Positions 1 to 30,469 of a DNA stretch of 35,931 nucleotides are shown here, one piece after another. The notes under the pieces were generated by a model that had not been told where the DNA came from, did not search any database, and worked only from the letters and a program-made list of their open reading frames with translations. The translations under genes and the position numbers were made by a program. The first letter of the stretch is position 1. Every line of letters begins with the position of its first letter. This DNA comes from a virus (lineage: Duplodnaviria > Caudoviricetes), in IMG/VR virus record IMGVR_UViG_3300016466_000278, positions 1 to 35,931 of that record; one strand, given 5' to 3'.

Positions 1-3000
1 GGTCCGACAACAGCCGGTGGTTGCGTTCTTGGAGCCCTTGGAGCCCTTGGAGGCTTAGGCGGAGCGTTAGCTTTGAGAAAGTCGGAAATGGCCGTTACCT
101 CTTCGTCAGCGCTACGAATGTCAGGCTTCGGTAGCTTGTAACGATAGCCAAGACCAAGCACCCCAGCGCCTGCGACTCCCAGTCCAAGGCGCTGAAGCGC
201 CTCATACATTGCGACATTTGTCTTCGCTTTCTCAACGCGCCTTAAAGCTTCAATGCTTTCGTTTCCTTTCTCGACATCCTCTTGCGCTTTTCGCAATTCT
301 TCCTTTGCATCCTCCACAAAGGGCGTCACCAGAGCGGCATCAAACAGACCGGCGCCGATGACCTTTACATCAAATGGGCGAAGAACGGATGACCCAACGC
401 CGTCCATTTTTTCCGTTGTCTTAGGAGTATACAACGAACCAACAGGAGCCTTTTTGGGGTTTACCTTCCATCCGGACGAACCGTAAACAAATGGCAGTTT
501 TTCTTCGGGAGCGCCGCCCTGCCGATAAAACTGATTCATGTTAACGGCCCGATTGCGTTCTGTGTTAGCCGCGCCACCTTTTTTCAGAAGGCTTTTGACA
601 GGTCCTTTTGTCAGCAGATCGTTGATGTCAGCCTCAATGAGTTTTACAGCTTCCTTCGACTTGCCAACGCCCCTCGCGCGCAAAACGGTTGCTGCAACGC
701 CGCCTACGATCGCCGCGCCACTTGGGCCAAGCTCACGAAGCGCATCCACAAACGGGTTCTGCTCCTGCTGAAATTCGCGATAGGCGCTCCGCGTCTCAAA
801 ATCGATCAAGTCATTTCTTGCCGTTGTAAGAGCATCTGTCTTGTCTTTGACGTAGGCATTAAACGCCGCTTCCGTCCTGTCGCCAGTGGTGCCATCAGCA
901 AACTTTACACGTTTGCCTTTATCATTCGTGTAGTATGATTGCACGCGACCAAGCTTCACCAGCAATTCCTGCTTACCCTTAACATCAAGCTTGTCCCATT
1001 CTTTTAGAGCCGCCTGCAGATCTTCTATCTCCTGTCTGGTTTTGGCGATATCTGCCGTCAGATCATCCTGCCCGCTAGCCTCACCAGCCAGCGCCCCAAC
1101 TGCGCCGCCTGTAGCTCCACCAGCGACCATGCGAGAGATAGTACCGGGAGGACCCTTGACCCCGGGAGGCTTGACCGATCTGCCAGACGCTGTCGCCTGA
1201 ACCGGAGGACCGGCCTTCGCAGCAGATGGAGGCTTAGCACGGCCCATGCCCATACGCATGCGCGCAAGACCAGCAGTACCGAGACCGAGAGCGCCCAGAG
1301 CAACAGCACTCGTCATGCGCTCCTGGTCGTCAATCACGCCATCTTCGTTGAGGTCAGACCCACGGGCATAGCCGTAGGCCGCTCCTCCGACGCCGGCTCC
1401 TGCCTGAGCGAGATTGCCAGCGCCGGGGAAGGCAAAGAGCGGGAAACCTTCGGACATGATCTTTTCGCGCATGGCCGGGGTAATGTCGAGGATGTAGGAC
1501 GAAGCACGTCCTACTGGCAGTTCGACCATCTTTCCAGTAGGTGCCAATCCCTCCAAATATTGTGCCGCTTTGATCGTTTTCCGTGGACGACCTAACTCAG
1601 TCCAGTACGACAGGTCGCCATACAACGCATCTGACACCATTCTAGCGAGTGTGCCGGTGGTAATGCCATACTCACTATGAAGGCTTTCTATGAGTTCGCC
1701 TCGGGAAATCTCCGTTCCGTCCGAGAGCCGAACAATCTGTCTGCTCTGGTCATTAAGGTCTGGATAGTCCTGATCGTACTCAACCCAGCCCTTCCTCACC
1801 TTTCCGCCCAGCTGCTTGCCAATCTTCTCCAGCGCGCCCTTGACGTTTGTTTCGTAATGCTGGGCAGCAAAGTCATTTTTCTGAATGATTTTGCTGGTCT
1901 CAGCGGTCGGGAAGCTGATCGACTGGAAGCCACCACGCGCGGCGCGGTAGATCATCGCGCGGACGGCGACGTTGGTCCATTCGGATGTGGTGAGGAGGGG
2001 GGCGCCAGCCGCAGTTTTTATAAACGAAAGTGCGGCTTCTGCGGCATCCGGGTTTTCAAAGCTCTGAGAGACAACCTTTCCGTTCTCATCAACCATCCAA
2101 TAAAGATCGTTAATTCTTTCTATAGTTAACTTATCACCGTCTTTTATTTGATTTTTTGGTTTACGCGCCTCCTGCGCCATGTCGGACTGCACCTGCCCGA
2201 CAAACACCGTGCGCTGGCCCATATCGTCAACGCGCTCCTCGCCGTGAGCTGTGACCAGTGTGCCCTTTGCCTTGCCGCCAACATGGCTAACTATCGCTTG
2301 ATAGTCAGCGCCGGGAACGCCCTTAGGGATGCCGATGACAGCTTCGAAGAGCGGTACATCTTCGCCAGGCAGGCGGATGTCGCCGGGGCCTCGGACGAGG
2401 CCTCCACCCTCGAACCGCTCGTAATCCCAATAATACTCAATGTTTTCCTTGCTGGCATTGCGAAGCACGCGGGCTCGGTTTTCGTTGACGATAATGCGCG
2501 CCGCCTTGGCGCGAAGTTCAGCAATCGTACCCGTAGCGATCAACTCGCGCTTTTCTGTCAGATCAGCGCCACGATAAAGATTGTAGAGCCGACTTGGCAT
2601 GTCGTAGCGTTTGACGGGGTCGTCCGAAACTTCCGCGTCTATAGGCTTGATGTACATATCAGTGTTAAACTCGCCCTCTCTACTGAGAGTGGCGGTGATT
2701 ATTTTGCCCTTTGAATCTCCGCGAGAGAGCGTCGTAACATTGAGGACGTTGACCAAAGCGCTGTCTGAAAGCTCGTCCAGCATGACGGCCTTGGTCGGGC
2801 GCTTCGCATTCGGGTCAAACCGCGCGAAGTTCTCCACCAGCGACAGACGCTTTGCGGCGATGTGCTCCATCACCGCGTCTTTCAACTCTGCGCCTTTGAG
2901 GACGTAGCTTCTGCTAGTATCGCCAAACATGGCGTCAAGGCCAAGGTATTCGATCTCCGTCTTGCGCGGAGTAATGCCTTCCCTGCCCTTTGCCAGCGCG

Positions 3001-6000
3001 CTGCGCGCGGCTTGCCAGCCCATGTTCCAGATATTGTCGGGGATCAGCTTGGCTGTTTCCTGAACCGCGCTGTAGAACCCCATCGCGTCTAGGTCGCGGC
3101 GGGTTTCAGCTTTTATTTGACGGCCCGTCCCCTGCCTGATGGCGGCGTCATCAGCCCCGGGGAAGGCTGAGAGGATATTGTTGCTTCTTGCCTGAGTTTG
3201 TGCGGGCGATACTTCGGAACTCAATATTGCCCCACTAGAAATTCTATCCGCGATCTCCTTTTGTGAAGCAGCCTGCACAGCAACAGCTTCTTCATAAGAT
3301 GAAGCTACAACACCATCTGTTGCTTTTGGTCTGCCATTGTAGGCAGGATCCCAGACCATGAAGACAACATCCGGCTGTCCGTTGTTGAACTCCGAAAACA
3401 AGCTTTTATCCCAACCCGATGGCGCGAACTCGTCGTTCCAGCGCAAACGGCTTTCAATGCGGAAACCGTGCCGGGAATAAATTTGCGGAAGAACGGTATC
3501 GAACGCATCAAGACGGCGACCGCCCATCTGTACTGCCAGCGGGATCAACGAATCCATACGTCCTCGCCGACCTTTCGGGTCGCTCCATGCGGAAACGATG
3601 TCGTCGCCTTTCAGCGCAAAGCCTGCCTTTCCATCTGCAGCCACAAACAGACGCATGCTCGCGTACTCTTCAGGACTGTAGATGTGTACAGCTGCGCCAT
3701 ACGGCGATTTCGATGTGGCTTCCTGCATACGCTTCGCGTACGCCGCGCCAGCTTGAGGATTCGCCGGAAGTTCATGAACATCCGGCATTTCAATCTGGTT
3801 TTTAGCATAGGCGCGTTGGTAGTCGCGATCCGGCGTATAGGTTGCGACAGCGCGCTGACCTAGAACCCGAACAGGCGCGCTATCTCTTCCGCTTTCTTGC
3901 GTGTAAGCCCGGGGTGATCCTCCATCGCTTGTGATATTGGATCGAGTGGTCCGAACTCGTTCCTCGCGGGCGTCACGGGCTCTCCGGTCGGCAAGGTCGT
4001 CGAGGCGCGAGGCAGCGCGTCCAAGCCGCCGGTCATAATCTCTTTGGCTAAAGCCTGAGCCAGTCGCATCTTGCGGCCCTGAGCGTACTCCGAGGAAACT
4101 TGGAGCATTTCCTTGAATTGCGCCAGGATTTCCGGCGAGATCTGCGATTTGTCGTCCATAGCCTGCCTCCTCAAGAACAGCACGAAGCGCTGGGCTTTCA
4201 CTCAACAGTATAGCAAAATCTGGCGTTCCGCCAATCTGGGCGTCAGTTAAGGCCTTCTCACGGATTAGCTGGAATGCGGACCTACTTTCTCCTGCCGCCT
4301 GTCGGGCTTCAAACAGCGTTTTGGCCCATGACCAGATGGTTTCCTGAACCTCTCGCGGCGACCATGCCTCCCCAGTTTTTTTGGTGAGATACTCGGCAAC
4401 CTCACGGGTATAGGCGTTTCCTGCCAGATAGCCGGGGGAGTATCCTGGCTGAGACTTGCCGCCACCACGAGCAAAGAGTTCTTGGTCGAAGTTGAAGTAG
4501 TTCGCCATCCACGCATCAAGCGTGGTTGCGTACTCTGTATCGTCCATTACAGCGTTAGCGCCGCGCTGCGCTAGCTCACTCGACGGACCAGCAACGCCCG
4601 GAACCTCTCTTGCACGCAAGTTGCGCCTAAAGCTGTCAACCTTTGGTCCAGACAGCAAAGCTTCAATTGGGTTTTCTGCGGTAACTGCCCGCACAGTGTT
4701 GTTGCGCCATGCGTCAAGGACGGAGCCCTCTCCCTTTCCGCCTTGAACGCTCTGACCCAGAATCTCAAGCACGCGAGCTTCATCGGTAGGGCGACCAGCC
4801 TTTGTCCAGTTTGTCCAGAAACTCACCGCATTGGTCAGGTTGCTTTCCACAGAGGTCTGCGGAGACATCGCGGCCAAGACGGCAGCAAATCTCGGCGCAT
4901 CAACTCCGAAAATCGCTTCCAGTGCTTTTTGCGAACGCAGATACCAACCTTTTTTCGCCGCTCCCGCAATAGCTACGGCGGCACCTTCCTCAATTGGAGA
5001 AATGTTGCGGAGGTCATTTAAGATTGCCATCACCTGGGGCGCTGTTTTTGCAGAGAGCGAGTCCAGCTCTTCATCGGTCAGTCGCTTACCCACTTCGCCG
5101 AAACCTTCAATATTTTGAGCAAAGTGATTTCGAGGCGACGCCACAGTCTTGAAGAATGACTCGACATCCCGCCTAGATGCACGTGTGCTTGCTGGGAACA
5201 CAGCTTGGAATGTCGCGCGCTCTTCTGGGGTAAGCAAAACACCCGACGACCGAAGCGCCTGCAGCATGTTCGCGCCAGTTTCTTGCTTTGGCAGCGACTC
5301 CAAGATCGTCAGCGCCTTCTCGCCAGCCGACATTCGTATTGATGCTGCCAGCTTATTTGTTTCAGCTTTTATTTGACGGCCCGTCTCTCCGCGTCCACCC
5401 ACGCCCATCGTCGCCGGACCCGTCGGGGGACCACGACGGGCAGCTTTAGGCATAAGCCTGCCGGCCACAGCGCCGCCAACGCCACCGGTGATCATGTTTC
5501 CGATGACAAAGGCTGCACGGTCATTGTCGTCGATCACGCCATCTCCGTCCGTATCGTAAGGAGCGACAACGCCTGCGGCTCCTACAGTAAGGGCTCCTGT
5601 AGCTGCCGGATTAGCTCCCATCCCAGCGAGGATATTGCGGCTTCCTGCTTCTGCCGGGTCGAAGGCGGCGTTGACGGAGCGGATGTTGGCGGGGTTGAAG
5701 ACAGCGCGGATTGTGGACGGCTTGCCCTTGCCATCGTAAGTGTCGATCACGTTGCGGATGATTACGCCGTCATGGCCTTCTGCTCGCGCTTGATCGATGT
5801 AATCGCGAATTGCAAAGCCTGATCCGTCCTTTTCGCGTCCACGGAACGGACGACCATTCCACTGAATGACCTTCGGGTTTTGCATCCGCAGATAAACTGG
5901 TATCGTCTCGGCAGTCGCGTTCTGATAGTCAAACGCACGCCTGTCGTCCGCATACGTCGAAGCTGTTTTTCTGTCTTCGGCGAAGAAATATACACGCTCA

Positions 6001-9000
6001 GGATCGGTCTGACCAAACTTTTCCTTCGGCGTCTTAAAGCCATCGGTCCACACGCCGCGACTATCGGGCGTCCCATGATACAGCACCGTATCCGTATCAA
6101 ACCCCATCGCCCTTGCGCGTTCCATCCGCGCGCCCTGCGACATATCCAAGCCCTTCTCGCGTGCGCGTACCCACTCCTGCGCTTCACCGATGTCCTGCCC
6201 GGCGTAGCCTTGGGCCTCTGCCTGACGGATGATGTCGTCAGAAGAGGCACGAGATCCACCTCCGAGCCCCATGGCATTGACGCCGCGTCCCGGAGGCATC
6301 CTGCGAGGAGGAGGCCCTCCACGGCGAAGCATACGTCCAGCAGCAGCCCCGCCAACGGCGCCAACGCCTGCGCCAATCAGGGCTCCCGCAGCAGGATCAT
6401 CCGGGTTCATCGCAGCGCCCGTAAGAGCCCCTACGCCTGCACCCCCGATGAATGCGGGAGAGCGCGATGTGGGGTCATCAAAATCACCACGTCTGGCAGC
6501 AAGCCACTCCTGATATATGTCCCACTCTTCGCGAGCGCCTATCCGATAGCTGGGGTTGCCGCCGAACTCTTCGTTAATCAGCCGCATCAGGCTGTTAGCG
6601 TCTTCAGGATCAACATCAAAGCCCTGATTGTAAGCCCTACGAGTAAGCTCATCGATGGCTGTTCCAGACTTGTTGTTGAGAAGTCCCGGCATGCCATTGG
6701 CTCGACCCATGATGGAACGCAGATCGCCCCTCATGAAGTTCGTATCTTTGATGCCGCCCTGGCTTCTGATCCAAGCGACAAGGGATTGCGGCTTTTTCGG
6801 TACAGGCCCGTCCCACGGACCTACCTGCTCTGATACCGGAACACGAGAGGGCGAAGGATCAGCCTGACCGGCTGTTGCGGGGCCAGTGTCCGGGAAGGGC
6901 GGATCAGACTGAACAGCGGCAGGTGCAGGACCGCGAGGAAGGTCATCCACAGGACCAGCAGACGCAGGCCCTGCAGCAGGACCACGACCACTGGCAGGGG
7001 GAGGACCGCCCTGAGGAGCAGCAGGAGGCGGACCTCCCCTGCGACCACGGGGAGGACGTGTGCGACCAGGAGGGAAGATCCGGGCGAGGTTCGCATCCGT
7101 TGCGCCGCCAAGGAGCATTTCACCCATGAGGTCACGTTGCGCCTGAGAATAGGCTCCGGACTTGCTGAGATAAGCAAGCCCCGCCTCCAATGGGTTGCGA
7201 ACGGTGTTGACGGCCTGAGCAATCATCGGGCCTACGCCGGCAGGCTCTGAGAGCATCGCGCGCGAAGTCACCGATCCCACATTGGGATCCATCTGGCGCG
7301 CATTGCGCATCAGGGCTTCCTCAGCCTTGAAGCGCGCCTGCATTGCATCAGCCGCTTCCTGGCCGAATACGCGGGCCAGCTTCTGGCGCGTCCCCGGCCC
7401 CGTCAGGGCCTGAAGGGCGCCGCGACCGGTCTCCACCTTCCCGATCATGGCGCGGATGACGCCGGCCTGTGTCGCCGTCAGAGCGGCGCCGGTGGTCTCC
7501 TCAATGATCCTGCCTATGTCCTCGACAGAGAAGCGGCCCTGCAGCAGACGCTGGCCTTCTGAGAAAGCCTGACGCATGCGTGGCGCTTCACCACCCAGAC
7601 GACGCGCTTCTGGATAGCCAGGAACAAGCCTGTCCATTTCTTCAAGCAGAGCGACCCGCGCGCTTTCGAGGTCATACGGAACCCTTTCATTGCGCCCAAT
7701 GGCCCTTTGTTCCGCGTCATCAAGGCTGCGTTTCACAATATCGACGAACTCAAAGTCGCCGACTTGACGCCCCTCTGAGATAGCAATCGTATCGCGATAT
7801 CTTTGTGCAGCCTGAACGTGCGGCCTCATTATATCCTGATCAAGGAGTTCCATGAGACGACCGCTATCAAGGCTGCCCAGCGGATATTGGGCGCGGAGCG
7901 CCTGATAAGCCGGTGACGCCTCGGCCTGAGCAGCAGCAATCAGCTCATCCACATCGCCCGTAATCGTTCCAGGATTGAGACCTCTATTGACGCCACGTAT
8001 AGCGTCTTCAATTCCAGCCTGCGTGCGGCCCATGCTTGTTTCAGCAAGCTCAGCAGCACGCGCCGCCGCCACTTCACCCGTCGTGCCCGGAAGACGGGTC
8101 AGGCCGACAGCTGTTCCAAGTCCTTGCTGCGTAAGATCTGCTATGGTTGCGGGCTCGTTGCCAAAAGCCGCGCGCATAGCCGCCTGCACAGCTGCTGGAG
8201 ACGTCAGTCCAGCCTCCTCGAGCTGCCGTCTTACAAGAGCGCTGGAAACACGTTGGTCAAAACGGCTTGCGTTTGCAGCGCCACCTGCTGCGCGCTGTAT
8301 GGTGCGTCCAAGTCTTCCCCCTGCGTTTCCGAGCGCACGTGGCAACAAAGCGCCCGCGACGACGCCTCCAGCCGTACCAAGCGGGTTGTTGCTCCCATCG
8401 TCGCCAGCAGACGCCGCAGCTGACGGAGACGCCACCATGCCCCCTACAGCACCACCTATAAAGCGATCTGCATTGCGAACGATCAGATTGCCACGAGGCG
8501 GAAGAACCTCTCCAGATCGGGAAAACGGAGCAGGACCAGCAGGAGCGGCAGCCTGAGGAGGCGGTTCCGGAGCAGGTGCAGGTTCAGGAGCCGGACCAGC
8601 ATCATCGGCCTGTTGCGTTCCAGCCCGGATGGGAGGCTCCGTGTTGCCGCTACGGATCGCAGCAACGATTTCCTCGTTGGTCATGCCAGCCTGTTGCAGG
8701 CGCTGCACGACCGACTGCTTTTCTCCATCCGGCAGGCTATTAAAGAGTTCCTGAGGAGACACAGGTGGCGTCATCCTATCAATAGTCTCAATCGCAGCCT
8801 GTTTCTGAGCGTCTGTCGCATTCTCCGCTAAAAGAATCTGACGCGCTTGTTTAAGCTGGATAGACTGAGGCGTGATGCTAGCGCCCAGCGTCCGAATGCC
8901 AATGCTGGACCGATATATCGCAGACAACGCAGGCCCCAGCGCCCATGTGAGCGGATCAGCAGCCAGCTGTCCGGCCATTTCTACGCGCTGTCCCTCAGGC

Positions 9001-10043
9001 GCCATGTTAGCGCCTATGATGGATGCTAAGCCTACGTTCTCAGCAATGTTGCCAGATATGCGTGTTCCATAACCCAGAGCCTTCGCGCCTGTAGTTCCTT
9101 TTGCGCCGATATTTGTAGCAACGCGGCCCAGATTAGCTTCTTTGGGAATTGCCTTTCCAGGACCCAGCAATGCGCCCGCAATCGTTCCGCCAAAATCGGT
9201 GATAATTTCCGCTTCGTCTTTAGGCGCAGAAAGCGGAACCGTTGGCAGCATCTCTATTTTTGGAGCCTGCTCGGTTCCAAAGCTCGATCTCCCCATGTCC
9301 TGCATACGGCTGGATTTAGAAGAGCCAACAGGCTCTTGACGGCCCATTGCAATTTCCAGCATTGACCGCCGCTTGCGTGTTTCGTCAAATTGCAGCGGAT
9401 TGCCGAGCATGTCATACGCCGGCCCGGGCCCGGACATAGCGTCTCCGAGTTCCAGAACCGCGTTTGCCGTGCCAGGACCCATTGCGTCGATTGCTTTGCC
9501 CGCAAAACGGACAGGAAGCATGCGATTTACATCGCCCTGCGACACAGTCCTGCCTTCAGGGTCAAACGTCTGCGTCGGCGCAATTCCAAAAGCAGAACCA
9601 CCGACACCCATCTCTCCAACAGCCTGTGATAGCGCATCCGACTGAGCGCGGCGCTGCTTAGCCATCTCTTCTGGAGCAGGACCGCTTTGCTCTTTGAGAT
9701 ACGCTCTCTGCGCTTGACGTGCTCTGGCGTTCCACTCCGTTGTTATAGGATTTGGAGCGTTGGTTTGCTTAAGCGCCGCCGTTTGACGATCGTAGCGATA
9801 AAGATCATCAAAAGCCTGACCTTCATTACCCCATGGCATAGGGTCGGTCACACGAGGCTTTGGCGGGCCCTTTATTGCGGGAGCCGGGGGCGGAACAGTA
9901 CGCCCTCTGCGCTGCAACTCTGCACGGATCTGATCCTGCGTGAGACCCTGCGTCTGTGGCTGAGATGGAGCTGTGCCCATGCCAGCTTCACGCGCACGGC
10001 GGCGCCTCTCGCGTTCAGCGAGCAGTTCTTCTTTCGTGAACAT
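1..10043 (-). CDS. Giant polyvalent virion ejection (internal) protein, at least 3347 aa, 3'-truncated by the window edge
   Basis: ATG at 10043 (MFTKEELLAERERRRRAREAG...) lies just after the stop of the upstream ejection gene, with a GGGGA SD-like site. Manual translation of this frame found no stop down to position 1. It occupies the third ejection-gene slot (P22 gp16-like position) and contains several recognisable enzymatic motifs. Confidence 0.93.
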   Translation of the reverse strand, partial: MFTKEELLAERERRRRAREAGMGTAPSQPQTQGLTQDQIRAELQRRGRTVPPPAPAIKGPPKPRVTDPMPWGNEGQAFDDLYRYDRQTAALKQTNAPNPITTEWNARARQAQRAYLKEQSGPAPEEMAKQRRAQSDALSQAVGEMGVGGSAFGIAPTQTFDPEGRTVSQGDVNRMLPVRFAGKAIDAMGPGTANAVLELGDAMSGPGPAYDMLGNPLQFDETRKRRSMLEIAMGRQEPVGSSKSSRMQDMGRSSFGTEQAPKIEMLPTVPLSAPKDEAEIITDFGGTIAGALLGPGKAIPKEANLGRVATNIGAKGTTGAKALGYGTRISGNIAENVGLASIIGANMAPEGQRVEMAGQLAADPLTWALGPALSAIYRSSIGIRTLGASITPQSIQLKQARQILLAENATDAQKQAAIETIDRMTPPVSPQELFNSLPDGEKQSVVQRLQQAGMTNEEIVAAIRSGNTEPPIRAGTQQADDAGPAPEPAPAPEPPPQAAAPAGPAPFSRSGEVLPPRGNLIVRNADRFIGGAVGGMVASPSAAASAGDDGSNNPLGTAGGVVAGALLPRALGNAGGRLGRTIQRAAGGAANASRFDQRVSSALVRRQLEEAGLTSPAAVQAAMRAAFGNEPATIADLTQQGLGTAVGLTRLPGTTGEVAAARAAELAETSMGRTQAGIEDAIRGVNRGLNPGTITGDVDELIAAAQAEASPAYQALRAQYPLGSLDSGRLMELLDQDIMRPHVQAAQRYRDTIAISEGRQVGDFEFVDIVKRSLDDAEQRAIGRNERVPYDLESARVALLEEMDRLVPGYPEARRLGGEAPRMRQAFSEGQRLLQGRFSVEDIGRIIEETTGAALTATQAGVIRAMIGKVETGRGALQALTGPGTRQKLARVFGQEAADAMQARFKAEEALMRNARQMDPNVGSVTSRAMLSEPAGVGPMIAQAVNTVRNPLEAGLAYLSKSGAYSQAQRDLMGEMLLGGATDANLARIFPPGRTRPPRGRRGGPPPAAPQGGPPPASGRGPAAGPASAGPVDDLPRGPAPAAVQSDPPFPDTGPATAGQADPSPSRVPVSEQVGPWDGPVPKKPQSLVAWIRSQGGIKDTNFMRGDLRSIMGRANGMPGLLNNKSGTAIDELTRRAYNQGFDVDPEDANSLMRLINEEFGGNPSYRIGAREEWDIYQEWLAARRGDFDDPTSRSPAFIGGAGVGALTGAAMNPDDPAAGALIGAGVGAVGGAAAGRMLRRGGPPPRRMPPGRGVNAMGLGGGSRASSDDIIRQAEAQGYAGQDIGEAQEWVRAREKGLDMSQGARMERARAMGFDTDTVLYHGTPDSRGVWTDGFKTPKEKFGQTDPERVYFFAEDRKTASTYADDRRAFDYQNATAETIPVYLRMQNPKVIQWNGRPFRGREKDGSGFAIRDYIDQARAEGHDGVIIRNVIDTYDGKGKPSTIRAVFNPANIRSVNAAFDPAEAGSRNILAGMGANPAATGALTVGAAGVVAPYDTDGDGVIDDNDRAAFVIGNMITGGVGGAVAGRLMPKAARRGPPTGPATMGVGGRGETGRQIKAETNKLAASIRMSAGEKALTILESLPKQETGANMLQALRSSGVLLTPEERATFQAVFPASTRASRRDVESFFKTVASPRNHFAQNIEGFGEVGKRLTDEELDSLSAKTAPQVMAILNDLRNISPIEEGAAVAIAGAAKKGWYLRSQKALEAIFGVDAPRFAAVLAAMSPQTSVESNLTNAVSFWTNWTKAGRPTDEARVLEILGQSVQGGKGEGSVLDAWRNNTVRAVTAENPIEALLSGPKVDSFRRNLRAREVPGVAGPSSELAQRGANAVMDDTEYATTLDAWMANYFNFDQELFARGGGKSQPGYSPGYLAGNAYTREVAEYLTKKTGEAWSPREVQETIWSWAKTLFEARQAAGESRSAFQLIREKALTDAQIGGTPDFAILLSESPALRAVLEEAGYGRQIADLAGNPGAIQGNAPSFLGVRSGPQDATGSGFSQRDYDRRLGRAASRLDDLADRRARDAREERVRTTRSNITSDGGSPRAYTQESGRDSAPVRVLGQRAVATYTPDRDYQRAYAKNQIEMPDVHELPANPQAGAAYAKRMQEATSKSPYGAAVHIYSPEEYASMRLFVAADGKAGFALKGDDIVSAWSDPKGRRGRMDSLIPLAVQMGGRRLDAFDTVLPQIYSRHGFRIESRLRWNDEFAPSGWDKSLFSEFNNGQPDVVFMVWDPAYNGRPKATDGVVASSYEEAVAVQAASQKEIADRISSGAILSSEVSPAQTQARSNNILSAFPGADDAAIRQGTGRQIKAETRRDLDAMGFYSAVQETAKLIPDNIWNMGWQAARSALAKGREGITPRKTEIEYLGLDAMFGDTSRSYVLKGAELKDAVMEHIAAKRLSLVENFARFDPNAKRPTKAVMLDELSDSALVNVLNVTTLSRGDSKGKIITATLSREGEFNTDMYIKPIDAEVSDDPVKRYDMPSRLYNLYRGADLTEKRELIATGTIAELRAKAARIIVNENRARVLRNASKENIEYYWDYERFEGGGLVRGPGDIRLPGEDVPLFEAVIGIPKGVPGADYQAIVSHVGGKAKGTLVTAHGEERVDDMGQRTVFVGQVQSDMAQEARKPKNQIKDGDKLTIERINDLYWMVDENGKVVSQSFENPDAAEAALSFIKTAAGAPLLTTSEWTNVAVRAMIYRAARGGFQSISFPTAETSKIIQKNDFAAQHYETNVKGALEKIGKQLGGKVRKGWVEYDQDYPDLNDQSRQIVRLSDGTEISRGELIESLHSEYGITTGTLARMVSDALYGDLSYWTELGRPRKTIKAAQYLEGLAPTGKMVELPVGRASSYILDITPAMREKIMSEGFPLFAFPGAGNLAQAGAGVGGAAYGYARGSDLNEDGVIDDQERMTSAVALGALGLGTAGLARMRMGMGRAKPPSAAKAGPPVQATASGRSVKPPGVKGPPGTISRMVAGGATGGAVGALAGEASGQDDLTADIAKTRQEIEDLQAALKEWDKLDVKGKQELLVKLGRVQSYYTNDKGKRVKFADGTTGDRTEAAFNAYVKDKTDALTTARNDLIDFETRSAYREFQQEQNPFVDALRELGPSGAAIVGGVAATVLRARGVGKSKEAVKLIEADINDLLTKGPVKSLLKKGGAANTERNRAVNMNQFYRQGGAPEEKLPFVYGSSGWKVNPKKAPVGSLYTPKTTEKMDGVGSSVLRPFDVKVIGAGLFDAALVTPFVEDAKEELRKAQEDVEKGNESIEALRRVEKAKTNVAMYEALQRLGLGVAGAGVLGLGYRYKLPKPDIRSADEEVTAISDFLKANAPPKPPRAPRAPRTQPPAVVG
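845..990 (-). other. Peptidoglycan-binding-like motif within the giant protein
   Basis: VKGKQELLVKLG...ADGTTGDRTEAAFNAY resembles the PG_binding_1 pattern Q..L..LG...DG..G..T..A. Confidence 0.45.
1436..3090 (-). other. Large polyvalent-protein domain (FYS...QSD...LDITPAMR...PLF) within the giant protein; function unknown
   Basis: Starts DAMGFYSAV, contains GQRTVFVGQVQSDMAQEAR and APLLTTSEWTNVAVRAMIYRAARGGFQSISFPT, and ends YILDITPAMREKIMSEGFPLF. This is a variant of the EEIQSDW-motif module I recognise from giant phage proteins. Confidence 0.6.
3335..3770 (-). other. GNAT-fold acetyltransferase-like domain within the giant protein
   Basis: YSPEEYASMRLFVAADGKAGFALKGDDIVSAWSDPKGRRGRMDSLIPLAVQMGGRRLDAFDTVLPQIYSRHGFRIESRLRWNDEFAPSGWDK...QPDVVFMVWDP. 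It has a GNAT motif B-like segment (L...Y...GF). Confidence 0.65.
3860..4159 (-). CDS. Nested out-of-frame small protein (99 aa) inside the giant ORF; candidate immunity/antitoxin
   Basis: ATG at 4159 with GAGGAGG (4166-4172) 6 nt upstream and its own promoter. The product is protein-like and helical (MDDKSQISPEILAQFKEML...DPISQAMEDHPGLTRKKAEEIARLFGF). The host frame over the same bases is an R/G/S/D-rich low-complexity linker. Confidence 0.75.
   Translation of the reverse strand: MDDKSQISPEILAQFKEMLQVSSEYAQGRKMRLAQALAKEIMTGGLDALPRASTTLPTGEPVTPARNEFGPLDPISQAMEDHPGLTRKKAEEIARLFGF
4207..4234 (-). promoter_or_regulatory. sigma70-type internal promoter for the nested gene
   Basis: Minus strand TTGGCG (4234-4229), 16-nt spacer, TATACT (4212-4207) with an extended -10 TG (TGcTATACT). 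The palindrome TGGCG-ttc-CGCCA (4221-4233) overlaps the -35. Confidence 0.7.
4320..4965 (-). other. Helix-hairpin-helix DNA-glycosylase-like (DUF7178-like) domain within the giant protein
   Basis: KKGWYLRSQKAL...FAAVLAAMSPQTSVESNL...LSGPKVDSFRRNL...TTLDAWM...WSPREVQETIW motif series, recognised by eye. The family name is unverified. Confidence 0.55.
5645..6155 (-). other. ADP-ribosyltransferase-like domain (ART-PolyVal type) within the giant protein
   Basis: LDMSQGARMERARAMGFDTDTVLYHGT...VYFFAEDRKTASTYA...IPVYLRMQNP...EGHDGVIIRNVID...VFNPANIRSVNAAFDP. This is the YHGT / YF / A..YA / GxDG / VF.P..I.S pattern of ART domains in phage polyvalent proteins. Confidence 0.8.
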
Positions 10044-10046
10044 GTG

Positions 10047-11921
10047 TCAGTTCCCCGCGCCGGCCAGCATGGCTTCGAGTTCTTCGTCCGTCAGGTCTTC
10101 AGCACGCTTTTCACCAGAAACAATGCTTGGCGAAGACGCTATTCCGGTGCTTGCGTTGATAATCGCCTGAAGACGCTGACGTGACGCCTGCTCTCGCTTC
10201 AGCCTTGCCTCATTATCTTTCTGCATCGCGATATTCATAGCCTTCAGACGCGCCAAAAATTCTTCACCGGCTTTACGCGCGGCATCGTCCCCCTGCCTGA
10301 CATTCATCAGGCGAGTTGCTGCAGCTTGAAGTTTTGCACCCTCAGCATCTGAAAGCGGTCCAGTTCCTCTCAATCCAGGTATGGCCTGCAGGAATGCCTG
10401 ACCGCCAAGCTGCTCAAGCATCGCCATCCCGTTTGCGCGCGGGCTGCCTGGAGCCACCTGCCAGTTCAATAAATCATTGCCTTTGCCATCTGGGTTGATC
10501 CAATTGCCGTATGTGTCCTCAAATCGCTGTTTTGCTTCTGGGTCTTCCACGTTCAGGAAGTCTTCCAACAGGGCAATCGAAGAATTTAGCGTTGAAAGAT
10601 TGTTTCGCGCAATCGCATCAACTTCCGCCTGTTTGGCTTCCATCTCGTCAAGGCGCGCCTGCGCTTGGAAGCCCTGATAGTCTGTCATCCCGCCCGTAGC
10701 GGCTGATGAAGGCGATGCATCCTTTTGATTGATCGCAACGACATTGCCCGTTTGCGTATCAAAAACCTGAGATCCATCGGACATATTTATGAAGCGATTT
10801 GTGTTCGAAGATCCGCTTGGAATGCCGCGAACGCCCTCAACACGTATAGCCGCTCCCGAGTAAGGATTAACGTAATAAACCTGCCCGTCGGCTCCAATAA
10901 ACTGGTCCATCTTTACGGGCTCATCGCCCTTGATCATCTCTTTGTAATAATCCTCAAACACACCAGCATTGTAAGCTCGTAGAGCTTCAGGTCCCATTTC
11001 TTTTACAGCCTGCATTTGCTGCTGACGAGCATTGCGTGCGTCGATCGCCTTGAGCGGATCTTCGCTCATCTCAATTGCGTATTGCTCGTCCGGAGAAAGG
11101 TTTAGCTTTTCCATGTAAGACGTCAGCTTTGCCTTTGCCTCCTCAAGGTCGACACGGTCGCGGCTTTTGTCGCGACCCTGCGGAGACATAAAGAAGTACT
11201 GCAGGCTTGATACGTCCATTTCGTTTGGATCGTAACCGATCATGCTCTCAAAGAAGTTCGGCTGCGCGTTCTGCATATTGTTTCTGGCTGCATAGCTGCC
11301 AGGAACAGGACCGCGCCCGAAGGCTCCCATTGAGGGCGTCGGTTGCGATGCTGAAAGAGGCTCTGACGACCGCATGACCGGAACACCAGAAGAGTTCAAT
11401 GTCGGCCCCGTTCCGCCAAAGTTAGGCACATTGATGTTATAGTCCCGCGCCATTTGCTCACGTGTCAGTGGAGCATTTGCCGATGTCAGGCTGCTGGCAG
11501 TGTTTGGTGAAGCGCCTGAAGGTCCGCGCCCCATCATCCCCAGCTCAGGCATTTTTCTCCGCATCGCGGCGCCGATCGCTGATCCTAACCCGGCCCTCTT
11601 CACAGGCTGCATGGGAGCCCCATCAGACAGCATCGACCCAGTAGCTGCAGCGGGCATTTCACCGGCAAACCGCGTCGTCCGGTCGGCAGCAGGGCGCGCC
11701 TGCAACTGACTACGCATGTTGGCCCAGTTCTGCTGAGAGGCCTTTCTTCTCATGTCCTGACCACCACGGGTAAGTGGAAAGCCGCCATCGCCCATCAGTG
11801 GGTCCATGTTTCTGGACGTGATCTCCGTCTGTCCAGCAAGCCTTTTGCGAGCTTGCTCTTCGGCAATACGGCGCGCGACCTCAGGCGCAGCAGCGCCGAG
11901 GCCAAACATTCCGAATTTCAT
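10047..11921 (-). CDS. DNA ejection/transfer protein (P22 gp20-like)
   Basis: 624 aa. The C-terminal LGGQAFLQAIPGLRGTGPLSDAEGAKLQAAATRL resembles the gp20-type injection motif, and the gene lies in the ejection cluster. Confidence 0.7.
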   Translation of the reverse strand: MKFGMFGLGAAAPEVARRIAEEQARKRLAGQTEITSRNMDPLMGDGGFPLTRGGQDMRRKASQQNWANMRSQLQARPAADRTTRFAGEMPAAATGSMLSDGAPMQPVKRAGLGSAIGAAMRRKMPELGMMGRGPSGASPNTASSLTSANAPLTREQMARDYNINVPNFGGTGPTLNSSGVPVMRSSEPLSASQPTPSMGAFGRGPVPGSYAARNNMQNAQPNFFESMIGYDPNEMDVSSLQYFFMSPQGRDKSRDRVDLEEAKAKLTSYMEKLNLSPDEQYAIEMSEDPLKAIDARNARQQQMQAVKEMGPEALRAYNAGVFEDYYKEMIKGDEPVKMDQFIGADGQVYYVNPYSGAAIRVEGVRGIPSGSSNTNRFINMSDGSQVFDTQTGNVVAINQKDASPSSAATGGMTDYQGFQAQARLDEMEAKQAEVDAIARNNLSTLNSSIALLEDFLNVEDPEAKQRFEDTYGNWINPDGKGNDLLNWQVAPGSPRANGMAMLEQLGGQAFLQAIPGLRGTGPLSDAEGAKLQAAATRLMNVRQGDDAARKAGEEFLARLKAMNIAMQKDNEARLKREQASRQRLQAIINASTGIASSPSIVSGEKRAEDLTDEELEAMLAGAGN

Positions 11922-11959
11922 GGCGGTTTGTCCTTGAAGACGTCAATTACTGTTCGGCA

Positions 11960-12982
11960 TCAACCAAAAGGAGTCCAGTCTTTGAAACCGAAGTTTGATT
12001 CACTTGCTTTGCGCGTCCCTGTCCCGGTCGTGTTCTGTGTCTGCAGCATTGGGGTAGAGCCAAGGATGCCCTGACGCACCTGAAGCTCAAGCATGAACTT
12101 ATTCAGGCGGTCTGCAGCCTCGCGATCGAACTCGGCGCGATCGGCAAGCAGACGCGCCTGCTCAATATCGCGCTCCGTGGCCCCGATCTGAGCCATCATG
12201 TTTGCCTGCTGAGCCCACTCAGCATTCCTCTGGCCAGCCAGATTGCCAAGGAGGCCAGCTTCCTGGAAGCGCTGCTGGGCGGCAAACTGAGCCGCCTGAT
12301 CGCGTCTCTGGGCGTCCGCCATACGGGCCCCATAGCCGGCTTGAGAGTTGTACTGCTCAGCAGCCATCATGTTGCCGCTCTCACGCTCATCCGCTGCCAT
12401 GGCGTCATTGTAGCCGCGATAGAGCAGATCAGCGTTCATGCTGGCTAGGTCCATCGCAGCCTTGCGACGTAACTCAGCGTCAGCCACGCCGTGGCGTGAT
12501 CCTCCAAAGGCGCCGGAGCGCGTGGCCCGCGCCTGATTGTCCATCAGCTGACGATCGCGCGCCTCGTTTGCATAAGCCTCAGCAGAATTAACAACCTGGC
12601 TGATGAAGGGGTTCTGGCGCGCCTTGATCCTTTCGGCATCAAAGCCACGGTAGTTGACCTTGTCGGGGCCAAGAACACCCTCCGGCTTCCACTCAGCAGC
12701 CCCGCCCGCCTTCGCCGCAGCCGCAGCATCATCGAGCAGGCCGCCAGATCCCGATCCAGCAAAGATACGGTCCCGAGCCCTCACCTGCCCCTCGCTCATG
12801 CCAGCCACCATAGGCTTTGTGTAAGGCGTGAAAGGCGTTGAGGCGTAGTTCTGCGTCATCCCAAGCATGTCGCCCGTCTGCTTCTCCCACTGGTTCCGAG
12901 ACCAGTCTGTAAGCGCCTGCGTCTGCGTCTGGTTCGTCGTCTCAGTCGCCTTGGACTTTGACTTGCCGCCGCTCAGTGACAT
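11960..12982 (-). CDS. DNA ejection/pilot protein (P22 gp7-like position)
   Basis: 340 aa, Q/A/G-rich and helical, with N-terminal GGKSKSKATETTNQ and internal NPF and GAFGGSRHGVA motifs typical of the first ejection protein. Confidence 0.7.
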   Translation of the reverse strand: MSLSGGKSKSKATETTNQTQTQALTDWSRNQWEKQTGDMLGMTQNYASTPFTPYTKPMVAGMSEGQVRARDRIFAGSGSGGLLDDAAAAAKAGGAAEWKPEGVLGPDKVNYRGFDAERIKARQNPFISQVVNSAEAYANEARDRQLMDNQARATRSGAFGGSRHGVADAELRRKAAMDLASMNADLLYRGYNDAMAADERESGNMMAAEQYNSQAGYGARMADAQRRDQAAQFAAQQRFQEAGLLGNLAGQRNAEWAQQANMMAQIGATERDIEQARLLADRAEFDREAADRLNKFMLELQVRQGILGSTPMLQTQNTTGTGTRKASESNFGFKDWTPFG

Positions 12983-28432: not shown

Positions 28433-30469
28433 TTACGGTCCTGCGTCACGCCAAGCGCCGCCGCTATAAAAATATAGCTTATTATTAGTGGTATCTATGA
28501 CAATTGGTGCGGTGCCAGTTTGGGTTGTTGGGGTGCCTGTTGGTGTACCAGCACACGTTGGCACGTAAAGAAAACCATTAGTTGCGTTTGTTGCGATAGC
28601 AGCGGTTCCAACAACCATACCGCCCGCAGCAGGAACACTAACTCTTTTTGCTGAGTCGGTGTAAATTGAAAAAGGCGCGTTAGTGAACGAACCAAGGAAT
28701 GTATCAGCTGAATCCGCACCTAGTGTTAGCGTAGAGGCTGTGCCTGCGTTGTTGTACAGATAGAACCGTGGGTTATTGACTTGCCCAATGAATATAGCGC
28801 TTGCGTCAAACCCGCCCATCGCGGAGCCATTTCGCATGAACTGCACGTTGTGCGCTGTCCACGTTCCGATGTTTCCGGTTCCCGTAGATTGAATACCAAC
28901 TTCAGCGTTGCCGTCACGCCGAACTGTAATGCCAGTTGAAAATGATGCGCCCTGCACTCTCAGTTGTGGAGACGTGCCCGTCATGGCTACGGTGTCTGTT
29001 CCATCGCCAATTTTAATAGGCGATCCACTAAACGTCGGCGTACCCGCTACAGTCCCCGACAGCGTCGGGCTGGAGAGGGTCTTGTTGCTGAGCGTCAGCG
29101 TGTTGGCAGCAGTCGCCACCGTTGAACTATCAACTTGCAACGTTGTGTTTATGTAGTTCACTACCTGCGAGGCGTATCCGGTCCTCGTCGTTGTGCAGAC
29201 AGTAGTGGCTGCGTTTTCAGCATCGTTGACGAGTTGATCGTATCGAATGCCACCAGAAATAACAGAAGACCAGATTTTCGCATCGCTTGGGCCGTCCGTT
29301 TCCCAAAAACGAAATCCCGGTGTGCCTGACTTGATGTCGAACGCGAGTTGGTAGCCGCCGCTGTAGAAGGTGAATTGATCGTTTGCAGCGTGGGTAGCCG
29401 CCCCCGAGAACGTAGGCGTCCCGCTCACCGTCCCCGACAGCGTCGGGCTGGAGAGGGTTTTGTTGGAGAGTGTGTCTGTGGAGGAGATGGTTGGTACGGC
29501 TACGCCTTTGAAACTTACTGCCCCAGTGCTATCAACCGCAATCGGAGTGTCTTGGTAACTACTAGAACTGTTAAAACGATTTAGAAAGATACTGTCATCA
29601 TTGTCATTAAACCCCCAGTCCCAACGTTGCACTCCGTCGCTTTGCCTGAAGCGAAGTCCAGAAGTTCCTGTTGCGCTGGTTGTCTGTATTATCAGATTGT
29701 AATTTTGGAAAGTTGTGGCGCCACTAAACGTCGGGCTCCCCGATACAGTCCCCGACAGTGTCGGGCTGGATAGGGTCTTGTTGGAGAGGGTGTCTGTGCT
29801 GGAGATTGTGGGGATGGCTACGCCGTTTAAAAACGGTGCGCCGTTAGCATCAAATTGAAACCACGCCGCCGCGTTTCGATAAAATATAAGCTGGTTTGCG
29901 TCTGGTTTTCCAAGTGCCCAGTCTATACCTGAAGATCCGTTATAAAATCTGATGTAGCCGCCATCACTAACTCTAATAGGATACGTGCTTCCGCTCATTA
30001 CGAGAGCCCCGGTAAACGTCGGGCTCCCCGATACAGTCCCGCTAAGAACAGGGCTAGACAGCGTTTTGTTGGTCAGTGTATCGCTGCTGCTTATTGTCGG
30101 GACCGCCACGCCAACAGCAGTCACAGCTCCGGCTTTGCTGACCTTGAACTGGCTGACCCCGCCCACCTGAAGGTCGAGAAGCGCCGACGAGGCGTTGCTG
30201 TTAGTGTCCGTGACGTTCAGTTTCAACGCTGTTGGCGCGCCGGATGTGTTCCACGTGCCCGTCATGTCCAGGAGTGATGTGGCTTGAGAGCCCGTCAGGC
30301 TATAACCAGACATCGTCAGCGCGCTGCTGTTCTGGAGGAAGCTGATCAGGCCGCTGTTGACCGTCAGTTTCTTTGAGCTTCCGCTTTGAGCCGCACGCAG
30401 CGTGACCGCTGTGCCTGCCGATGCCTCAGTCTTGGCCGTGGTGTTAGCGAGCCATGTTTGCGTGGTCAT
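28433..30469 (-). CDS. Long fiber protein (678 aa) with repeated shaft motifs
   Basis: S/T/G-rich, with four TLSNKTLSSPTLSGTV repeats and a C-terminal ATNGFLYVPTCAGTPTGTP...DTTNNKLYFYSGGAW fiber motif. Confidence 0.85.
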   Translation of the reverse strand: MTTQTWLANTTAKTEASAGTAVTLRAAQSGSSKKLTVNSGLISFLQNSSALTMSGYSLTGSQATSLLDMTGTWNTSGAPTALKLNVTDTNSNASSALLDLQVGGVSQFKVSKAGAVTAVGVAVPTISSSDTLTNKTLSSPVLSGTVSGSPTFTGALVMSGSTYPIRVSDGGYIRFYNGSSGIDWALGKPDANQLIFYRNAAAWFQFDANGAPFLNGVAIPTISSTDTLSNKTLSSPTLSGTVSGSPTFSGATTFQNYNLIIQTTSATGTSGLRFRQSDGVQRWDWGFNDNDDSIFLNRFNSSSSYQDTPIAVDSTGAVSFKGVAVPTISSTDTLSNKTLSSPTLSGTVSGTPTFSGAATHAANDQFTFYSGGYQLAFDIKSGTPGFRFWETDGPSDAKIWSSVISGGIRYDQLVNDAENAATTVCTTTRTGYASQVVNYINTTLQVDSSTVATAANTLTLSNKTLSSPTLSGTVAGTPTFSGSPIKIGDGTDTVAMTGTSPQLRVQGASFSTGITVRRDGNAEVGIQSTGTGNIGTWTAHNVQFMRNGSAMGGFDASAIFIGQVNNPRFYLYNNAGTASTLTLGADSADTFLGSFTNAPFSIYTDSAKRVSVPAAGGMVVGTAAIATNATNGFLYVPTCAGTPTGTPTTQTGTAPIVIDTTNNKLYFYSGGAWRDAGP
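29025..30110 (-). repeat. Four dispersed ~95-bp repeats in the fiber gene
   Basis: Copies at about 29025-29120, 29400-29506, 29726-29825 and 30013-30110 encode variants of (GVAVPTISSTD)TLSNKTLSSPTLSGTVSGSPTFSG. Confidence 0.9.

Follow-up and report, generated by a model that had tools for sequence, protein, structure and literature searches.

A gene nested out of frame in a linker of a giant phage protein is a likely immunity gene for the adjoining GNAT domain

A giant phage gene carries, in the +1 frame of an internal linker, a complete small gene for a 99-aa protein, and we consider it likely, with a probability of about 0.7, that this protein is the immunity protein for the GNAT-fold effector domain that follows in the host frame; harm done by the enzyme, expression of the small gene and inhibition are the parts of this reading that we infer. 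Comparative data establish the existence of the nested gene, selection on it and its tie to the GNAT family, and the 99-aa ORF is almost certainly a real gene. The reading would suggest a way in which an element can produce a giant protein with many harmful enzyme domains and leave the producing cell unhurt.

The window (the whole 35,931-nt stretch of DNA that was analysed) comes from a phage with a terminase and SU10-type capsid, portal and adaptor genes, and all features given below lie on its minus strand. The giant gene (3..10043; at least 3347 aa) starts at 10043 and runs off the contig end. It comes after two genes that match families of ejected proteins (phrog_4287, 'DNA ejection protein', and phrog_2534, 'released from the phage upon host infection'), a position which suggests that the giant protein is packaged and injected. 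Like other polyvalent proteins it combines several conflict-type enzyme domains: an ART-PolyVal ADP-ribosyltransferase domain (5670..6086; 37.1 bits, cut-off 31.2), the GNAT fold (3300..3830) and a sub-threshold DUF7178-like region, the putative HhH-glycosylase-like domain (4311..4970; PF23802, 25.8 bits, cut-off 27). Upstream of the packaging genes lies a 678-aa ORF (28433-30469) with no Pfam or PHROGs match.

The nested gene occupies 3860..4159, from an ATG at 4159 to a TAG at 3862-3860, and its product ends in DPISQAMEDHPGLTRKKAEEIARLFGF. The ribosome-binding site GAGGAGG (4166..4172) stands 6 nt ahead of the ATG, and a putative promoter lies further upstream within the host coding frame (4207..4234: TTGGCG at 4234-4229, a 16-nt spacer, TG-n-TATACT at 4212-4207). 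A sequence-only reading of this DNA had described promoter-like site, ribosome-binding site, ATG and +1 ORF exactly so, and its remark that the host frame stays open across the small gene holds for the window and for 80 of 80 loci. Eight database proteins match the product at 71–90% identity, seven of them 99 aa long and one a 90-aa fragment. It belongs to no Pfam, NCBIfam, PHROGs or Atlas family, and a search with the 99-aa protein alone returned two chance loci in viral contigs (L001, L002) and none in metagenome contigs. PDB sequence matches to TAL repeats were discarded as sums of weak repeat matches with no single significant stretch. The C-terminal module (3863..3943; residues 73–99, DP..AM..HPxLT..A......GF-stop), which is the predicted GNAT-binding part and which we call family A (GNAT-linked), scores 24.7 bits with a profile from which the window was left out, the best of 500 shuffles reaching 6.2.

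The position of the small gene relative to the GNAT domain is conserved. We fetched 66 viral loci through the GNAT domain (45–63% identity), which together with the window form 38 clusters, one of them lacking upstream DNA and leaving 37. An ATG or GTG ORF of at least 40 codons, led by a ribosome-binding site and ending within the 135 nt before the GNAT domain, was found in the +1 frame in 31 of the 37 clusters versus 45 of 1131 control windows from the same host genes; the +2 frame gave 0/37 versus 7/1131. In five of the six clusters missed by this rule a comparable ORF is visible by eye. Stops in the +1 frame of the 37 clusters fall to 0.03 per 20 codons over 120 nt here, versus 0.13–1.2 elsewhere, and return to 1.05 in the bin that holds the nested stop. 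A host-frame ATG near the nested stop is present at none of 80 loci. An alternate-frame ORF beside the GNAT domain, proposed from the one sequence, thus turns out to be conserved.

Judged by substitution patterns, purifying selection acts on the nested frame. Nucleotide differences are most frequent at the nested third position both in the phage clade (12 sequences; 0.49 versus 0.33 and 0.28) and in the actinobacterial clade (24 sequences; 0.34 versus 0.26 and 0.23), and the nested product is better conserved than the host product (by identity) in 63 of 66 and 271 of 276 pairs of these sets, pairs being non-independent. As a control, the GNAT core of the phage clade peaks at the host third position; this control rests on the phage set, since the actinobacterial set matched one sequence only. 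None of 15 differences among close relatives creates a stop in either frame. For residues 57–99 four of five such differences are silent in the nested frame and four of five alter a host residue; for nested residues 31–52, three of five natural differences are silent in the host frame, whose AAxRLxxL helix at this place is conserved in HhH-like loci. The comparison of the two frames therefore bears out a constrained nested frame over a mere host linker for the C-terminal module, to which nested-frame dominance appears restricted, but not for residues 31–52, where the host frame seems partly constrained. A count of TAT versus TAC at the host Tyr that creates the nested ATG (19 to 20, background 28% TAT) was set aside and is not relied on, because many genes of a second nested family (family B, below) begin ~40 nt earlier.

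Expression signals point the same way to different degrees. A Shine–Dalgarno match of at least 4 nt precedes 72 of 81 chosen starts versus 13% of 1412 control ATGs, the former value being inflated by taking the best of several starts. The promoter match is not significant by itself, because four sigma-70-like sites were found in window positions 1-12000 and 4.2 are expected from shuffles. One low-depth contig of a relative has no listed differences in 4202-4232 versus 11 in the adjoining 4172-4201, and keeps AGGAGG intact despite changes at 4172-4173. Promoter-like sites scoring at least 9 precede 8 of 81 homologous starts versus 1.6% of 2124 control windows. A promoter in the window is thus plausible, as had been suggested, while the strong sigma-70-like site recurs at those eight starts only and its general use across homologues is not established. 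At one locus (L106) the DNA coding for the host linker LDNSENNNKIN contains a near-consensus TTGACA...TAAAAT promoter, ~26–55 nt ahead of the nested start codon.

The claim that the domain behind the small gene is GNAT-like is confirmed by its model (pLDDT 95): all listed Foldseek and VIA-align matches are GNATs, the best with Z 11.8, rmsd 2.8 Å and 131 residues aligned. Folding from the single sequence gave an unusable model (pLDDT 36). LPxxY..GF is conserved, and the canonical Q/RxxGxG/A acetyl-CoA loop is short and varies between sequences, G90 being present in 47% of 38 rows. We think it likely that the domain is a delivered effector. A DNA pattern for the C-terminal motif of the small gene hit 55 viral contigs (18 clusters, one with 31), the GNAT domain coming next in the host frame in 55/55, which shows linkage only, because the pattern overlaps the host RVL motif. 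A +1 ORF occupies the same slot in Rhodococcus and Kineococcus plasmids, in Nocardia, in a Brachyspira bin, in the minor capsid gene of phage Caron and in a giant gene of phage DC33. The small gene was expected to travel with the GNAT domain, and does: the pair is exchanged among unrelated delivery carriers, which include WXG100 toxins, proteins encoded on plasmids, giant proteins of phages and the minor capsid protein of one phage. The distant GNAT relatives L113, L120 and L121 have no partner.

Some slots hold +1 ORFs of a different look (L026, L032, L035, L037, L039, L048 and L053; for example ENHIPLTRENYL...WSPELEE), possibly replacement inhibitors. One linker (L024) has two consecutive +1 ORFs ~300–480 nt before the GNAT match. 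At L090 the first part of the GNAT ORF encodes a helical segment and overlaps, in a different frame, the last part of the preceding gene; it looks like a small nested protein that has become an in-frame fusion with the enzyme.

Structure prediction places the small protein on the enzyme. The GNAT domain (38-row alignment) co-folded with nested residues 58–99 (30 rows) at a score of 0.83, the best of three controls reaching 0.00. Among reference pairs, 116 of 157 solved ones and 2 of 215 mismatched ones come up to the mark, and these counts are roughly valid for the alignments used. At least 81% of contacts agree between runs and partner pLDDT is at least 69. The predicted contacts join conserved motif residues and the terminal FGF of the small protein to GNAT residues 81–95, 109–120, 38–48 and 147–148, which, by general GNAT topology, we take to be the acetyl-CoA cleft. 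Conservation of the predicted interface is no higher than that of the rest (0.56 versus 0.60). The co-fold proposed earlier thus speaks in favour of the GNAT domain as partner, and we think it very probable that the 99-aa protein binds the GNAT domain of the window; the models support this predicted binding and say nothing on its sign.

Copies away from the usual slot are informative. A six-frame scan of L003–L182 with a profile made from slot ORFs gave 105 matches, of which 103 lie directly before the GNAT domain, a circular result because the profile was built from such ORFs. The other two belong to loci whose GNAT domains have no nested copy: a phage-type copy 1.7 kb upstream of the GNAT domain (L047) and an actinobacterial-type copy 3.8 kb downstream of it (L104). 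At the latter the GNAT domain is internal to a WXG100/GT4-conflict protein, and at the end of the toxin locus the small gene stands free, preceded by a ribosome-binding site of its own. The survey for free-standing phage-type copies covered the fetched loci.

Among 251 Nocardia genomes the GNAT domain is present in 12, and the small gene is beside it in all 12: in the +1 frame directly upstream in 10 and, from coordinates, ~3.9 kb downstream in two. The small gene of the actinobacterial type occurs in 118 of the 251, ~106 of them lacking the GNAT domain. Of 20 sampled loci, 19 (18 of 19 picks bearing the small gene, plus one second copy) have no GNAT within ~4 kb, and five genomes with the small gene only, searched for GNAT at E 0.1, came back empty. 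Two GNAT-less loci look like cassette remnants. Such copies fit orphan immunity and also a GNAT-independent job. Since the match between the actinobacterial and phage clades of the small gene is weak (hhalign 34%, E 4e-4), what is seen in Nocardia may not apply to the window gene. Free-standing Nocardia copies are ~50 aa long (L239–L258), two of them standing in tandem at L239, and a small-gene clade ending in ELFGW has a chromosomal look. The toxin-like Nocardia proteins L104:1922-8442, L072 and L079 have several internal effector domains (GNAT, GT4-conflict, Zeta toxin); WXG100 is present in L104 and L079, and a partial GT4 gene lies behind the L104 toxin.

Could the +1 frame lack initiation of its own, being open merely through the codon bias of the host frame or serving as the tail of a programmed frameshift by which the giant protein is cut short? 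GC-rich host frames do leave many long +1 stretches, of which the giant gene has 19 of at least 60 codons, and the terminal GF-stop overlaps the host RVL motif. We nevertheless hold this to be very improbable, given the sharply placed stop with the stop-free zone before it, the third-position signal in the nested frame, the (inflated) excess of Shine–Dalgarno matches and the existence of free-standing copies. That the small gene has a function independent of GNAT and merely hitchhikes in the same DNA cassette is quite unlikely. The many Nocardia genomes with the small gene and without GNAT speak for it, and adjacency is not independent evidence against it, since both reading frames are written in the same DNA. 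However, the small gene stays near the GNAT domain after displacement in two unrelated loci, every GNAT-bearing Nocardia genome has it adjacent, and the co-fold passes against unrelated partners.

Alternatively, the small protein may bind the GNAT domain in another role, as cofactor, adaptor, substrate or chaperone, for example for targeting or for keeping it unfolded for packaging. The co-fold gives the site and not the sign, the loop for acetyl-CoA is of an atypical kind, the fold matches include a GNAT bound to a carrier protein (8zt4), and E. coli GndA is reported (10.64898/2026.10.22.760973) to be an out-of-frame microprotein that relocalises its host protein. We consider such a role unlikely all the same: a free-standing copy behind a WXG100 toxin is typical of immunity genes, as are copies kept after loss of the enzyme (L239, L241), and one would not expect the injected enzyme to be accompanied by a protein that the producer makes separately.

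On the immunity reading, the GNAT domain would be a harmful effector that is packaged and injected with the giant protein or, in Nocardia, exported by type VII secretion. The C-terminal helical hairpin of the small protein is predicted to sit over the presumed acetyl-CoA cleft and would block the enzyme. The small gene would be expressed from its own ribosome-binding site, in the window probably from its own promoter, and by this separate expression the producing cell would be protected. An effector that is an internal domain leaves no room for an immunity gene in its usual downstream slot; with the gene placed in the upstream linker, effector and inhibitor would travel together in a single cassette that keeps the frame. 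A transcript started internally would give inhibitor without enzyme, because there is no host-frame ATG near the nested stop. The GNAT family is thereby flagged as a likely antibacterial effector common to phages, plasmids and type VII secretion toxins, its predicted inhibitor amounting to roughly 30 residues, and the +1 frame of the linker adjoining each domain becomes a rule for finding inhibitors. The claim of nested immunity is directly testable, because some carriers are in culture, namely Limnohabitans phage DC33, Microbacterium phage Caron and Rhodococcus plasmids.

The HhH-like domain before the nested gene may have a nested partner of its own. It has an invariant K110 and D152 in SGPKV..F..NL..T.D.W, which to us resembles the catalytic Lys/Asp motif of HhH-GPD proteins, and no PDB sequence match. 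Profiles find it upstream of the GNAT domain in 28 of 80 loci (23 with the first profile), and it is undetectable in 52 of 80; a tblastn count of 4/107 was discarded as an underestimate in view of the profile counts. Most of 61 loci fetched through the HhH-like domain have, just behind it and without a GNAT domain, a different +1 ORF (PxLAAKQxRLL, family B; L122–L182) of ~45–75 aa, ~100–300 nt behind the domain and with two alternative ATG sites. The family B profile matches behind the HhH-like domain in 54 of 54, and selection on its nested frame is seen in identities of 0.55 versus 0.35 (27 sequences anchored on the motif). The window gene begins at the place where many family B genes begin, and its end resembles family A; a single ORF spanning both domains is found at L171 and L178 too. 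The N-terminal half of the 99-aa protein may thus belong to this second nested family: residues 1–43 (4031..4159) share the start region of family B, and residues 1–41 match it weakly (6.4 bits versus 5.4 for the best shuffle). The link to the HhH-like domain, beside which the sequence-only reading had placed the gene, is positional and weak.

A wider view, which we put forward tentatively and would not bet on at even odds, is that polyvalent phage and plasmid proteins are strings of effector–immunity cassettes with an inhibitor for each harmful domain in a +1 linker, and that the 99-aa protein is two-headed. Low-complexity linkers would then be the shadow of overprinted inhibitor genes. HhH-like and GNAT cassettes would have been joined in the window gene, the N-terminal half acting against the glycosylase-like domain and the C-terminal half plugging the GNAT domain; because residues 1–41 match weakly, we treat the two-headed inhibitor as a hypothesis. 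If the cassette-string view is true, a large unannotated class of enzyme inhibitors could be read domain by domain. For the ART domain no comparable nested partner was seen in the window. A 204-codon stop-free +1 stretch lies over that domain (5762-6376); it is Arg-rich and has the look of a shadow frame.

In lambda Rz/Rz1, which serves lysis, a gene nested out of frame likewise encodes a protein that acts on the product of its host frame. The E. coli altORF microprotein GndA (bioRxiv 10.64898/2026.10.22.760973) is reported to be alike; both differ from the window pair in serving relocalisation or lysis and not immunity, and in having no mobile effector cassette. Closer in function are the MuF polymorphic toxins of temperate phages, in which, according to passages of Jamet 2017 (PMC5576092), the toxin is C-terminal and a small ORF directly downstream is proposed as immunity protein. 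Virion-associated carrier, enzymatic effector and small candidate immunity ORF are common to both, and the GNAT domain with its nested ORF is found in the minor capsid gene of Microbacterium phage Caron too, whereas the window effector is internal and its small gene is overprinted on the carrier gene in another frame, ahead of the effector domain. The free-standing small gene of L104 is in the usual place of an immunity gene as those passages give it. The window gene, nested upstream of an internal domain, departs from that layout; downstream and free-standing copies occur only in L104/G001 and G200. The polyvalent-protein survey (Iyer 2017, PMC5512222), in the passages concerned, likewise has giant multi-enzyme phage proteins with ART-PolyVal and GNAT domains, including two GNAT families; 'overlap' and 'linker' are absent from its main text, and those passages do not mention cognate immunity genes.

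In type II GNAT toxin–antitoxin systems with a DUF1778 or DUF4065 antitoxin, as passages of Bikmetov 2022 (PMC9177977) have it, a small gene also lies upstream of the GNAT gene and its product likely inhibits by binding. Those systems are bicistronic with a separately started toxin, whereas around the nested stop the window GNAT lacks a separate ATG. Pfam matches to DUF1778 or DUF4065 are absent from the window protein and, at E 1 (among 25 of 29 families listed), from 37 family members, and GNAT toxins of this type are not among the listed fold matches of the window GNAT. Rhs elements acting as type II modules (Starsta 2020, PMC7043789) share promoters inside the gene of a delivered toxin; theirs express toxin plus antitoxin, whereas the window transcript would yield the out-of-frame inhibitor only. 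DUF433 (COG2442), a putative antitoxin whose listed partners, in the entries concerned, are PIN toxins, was matched in its C-terminal half by five of 37 family members and not by the window protein. DUF433 identity was rejected, the best full-length score being 18.4 bits versus a cut-off of 23.6 (PF04255), over positions 24–54 of 56 with the N-terminal half absent. The nested pair is thus one that works like a polymorphic toxin–immunity pair without the directly downstream gene, and is neither a DUF1778/DUF4065 system nor a DUF433 protein. Nested immunity genes inside such proteins were not found in the literature searched, which was mostly without subscription journals and without supplements.

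Annotation is affected as well, since gene callers either leave out the small gene or shorten the host gene. The expectation that callers would miss it is right for two phage records and wrong for one plasmid record, which calls the small gene at the cost of the host gene. In this record, of Kineococcus plasmid pKRAD01, the small gene is annotated as WP_041293812.1 (L118:2238-2417), with the start of the GNAT gene placed behind it; the host frame there is open for ~800 nt further upstream than the annotated GNAT gene start. The record of phage DC33 (L116, PQ492659.1) is filed under Inoviridae despite its 39 kb and 9.4-kb gene, a label that looks wrong.
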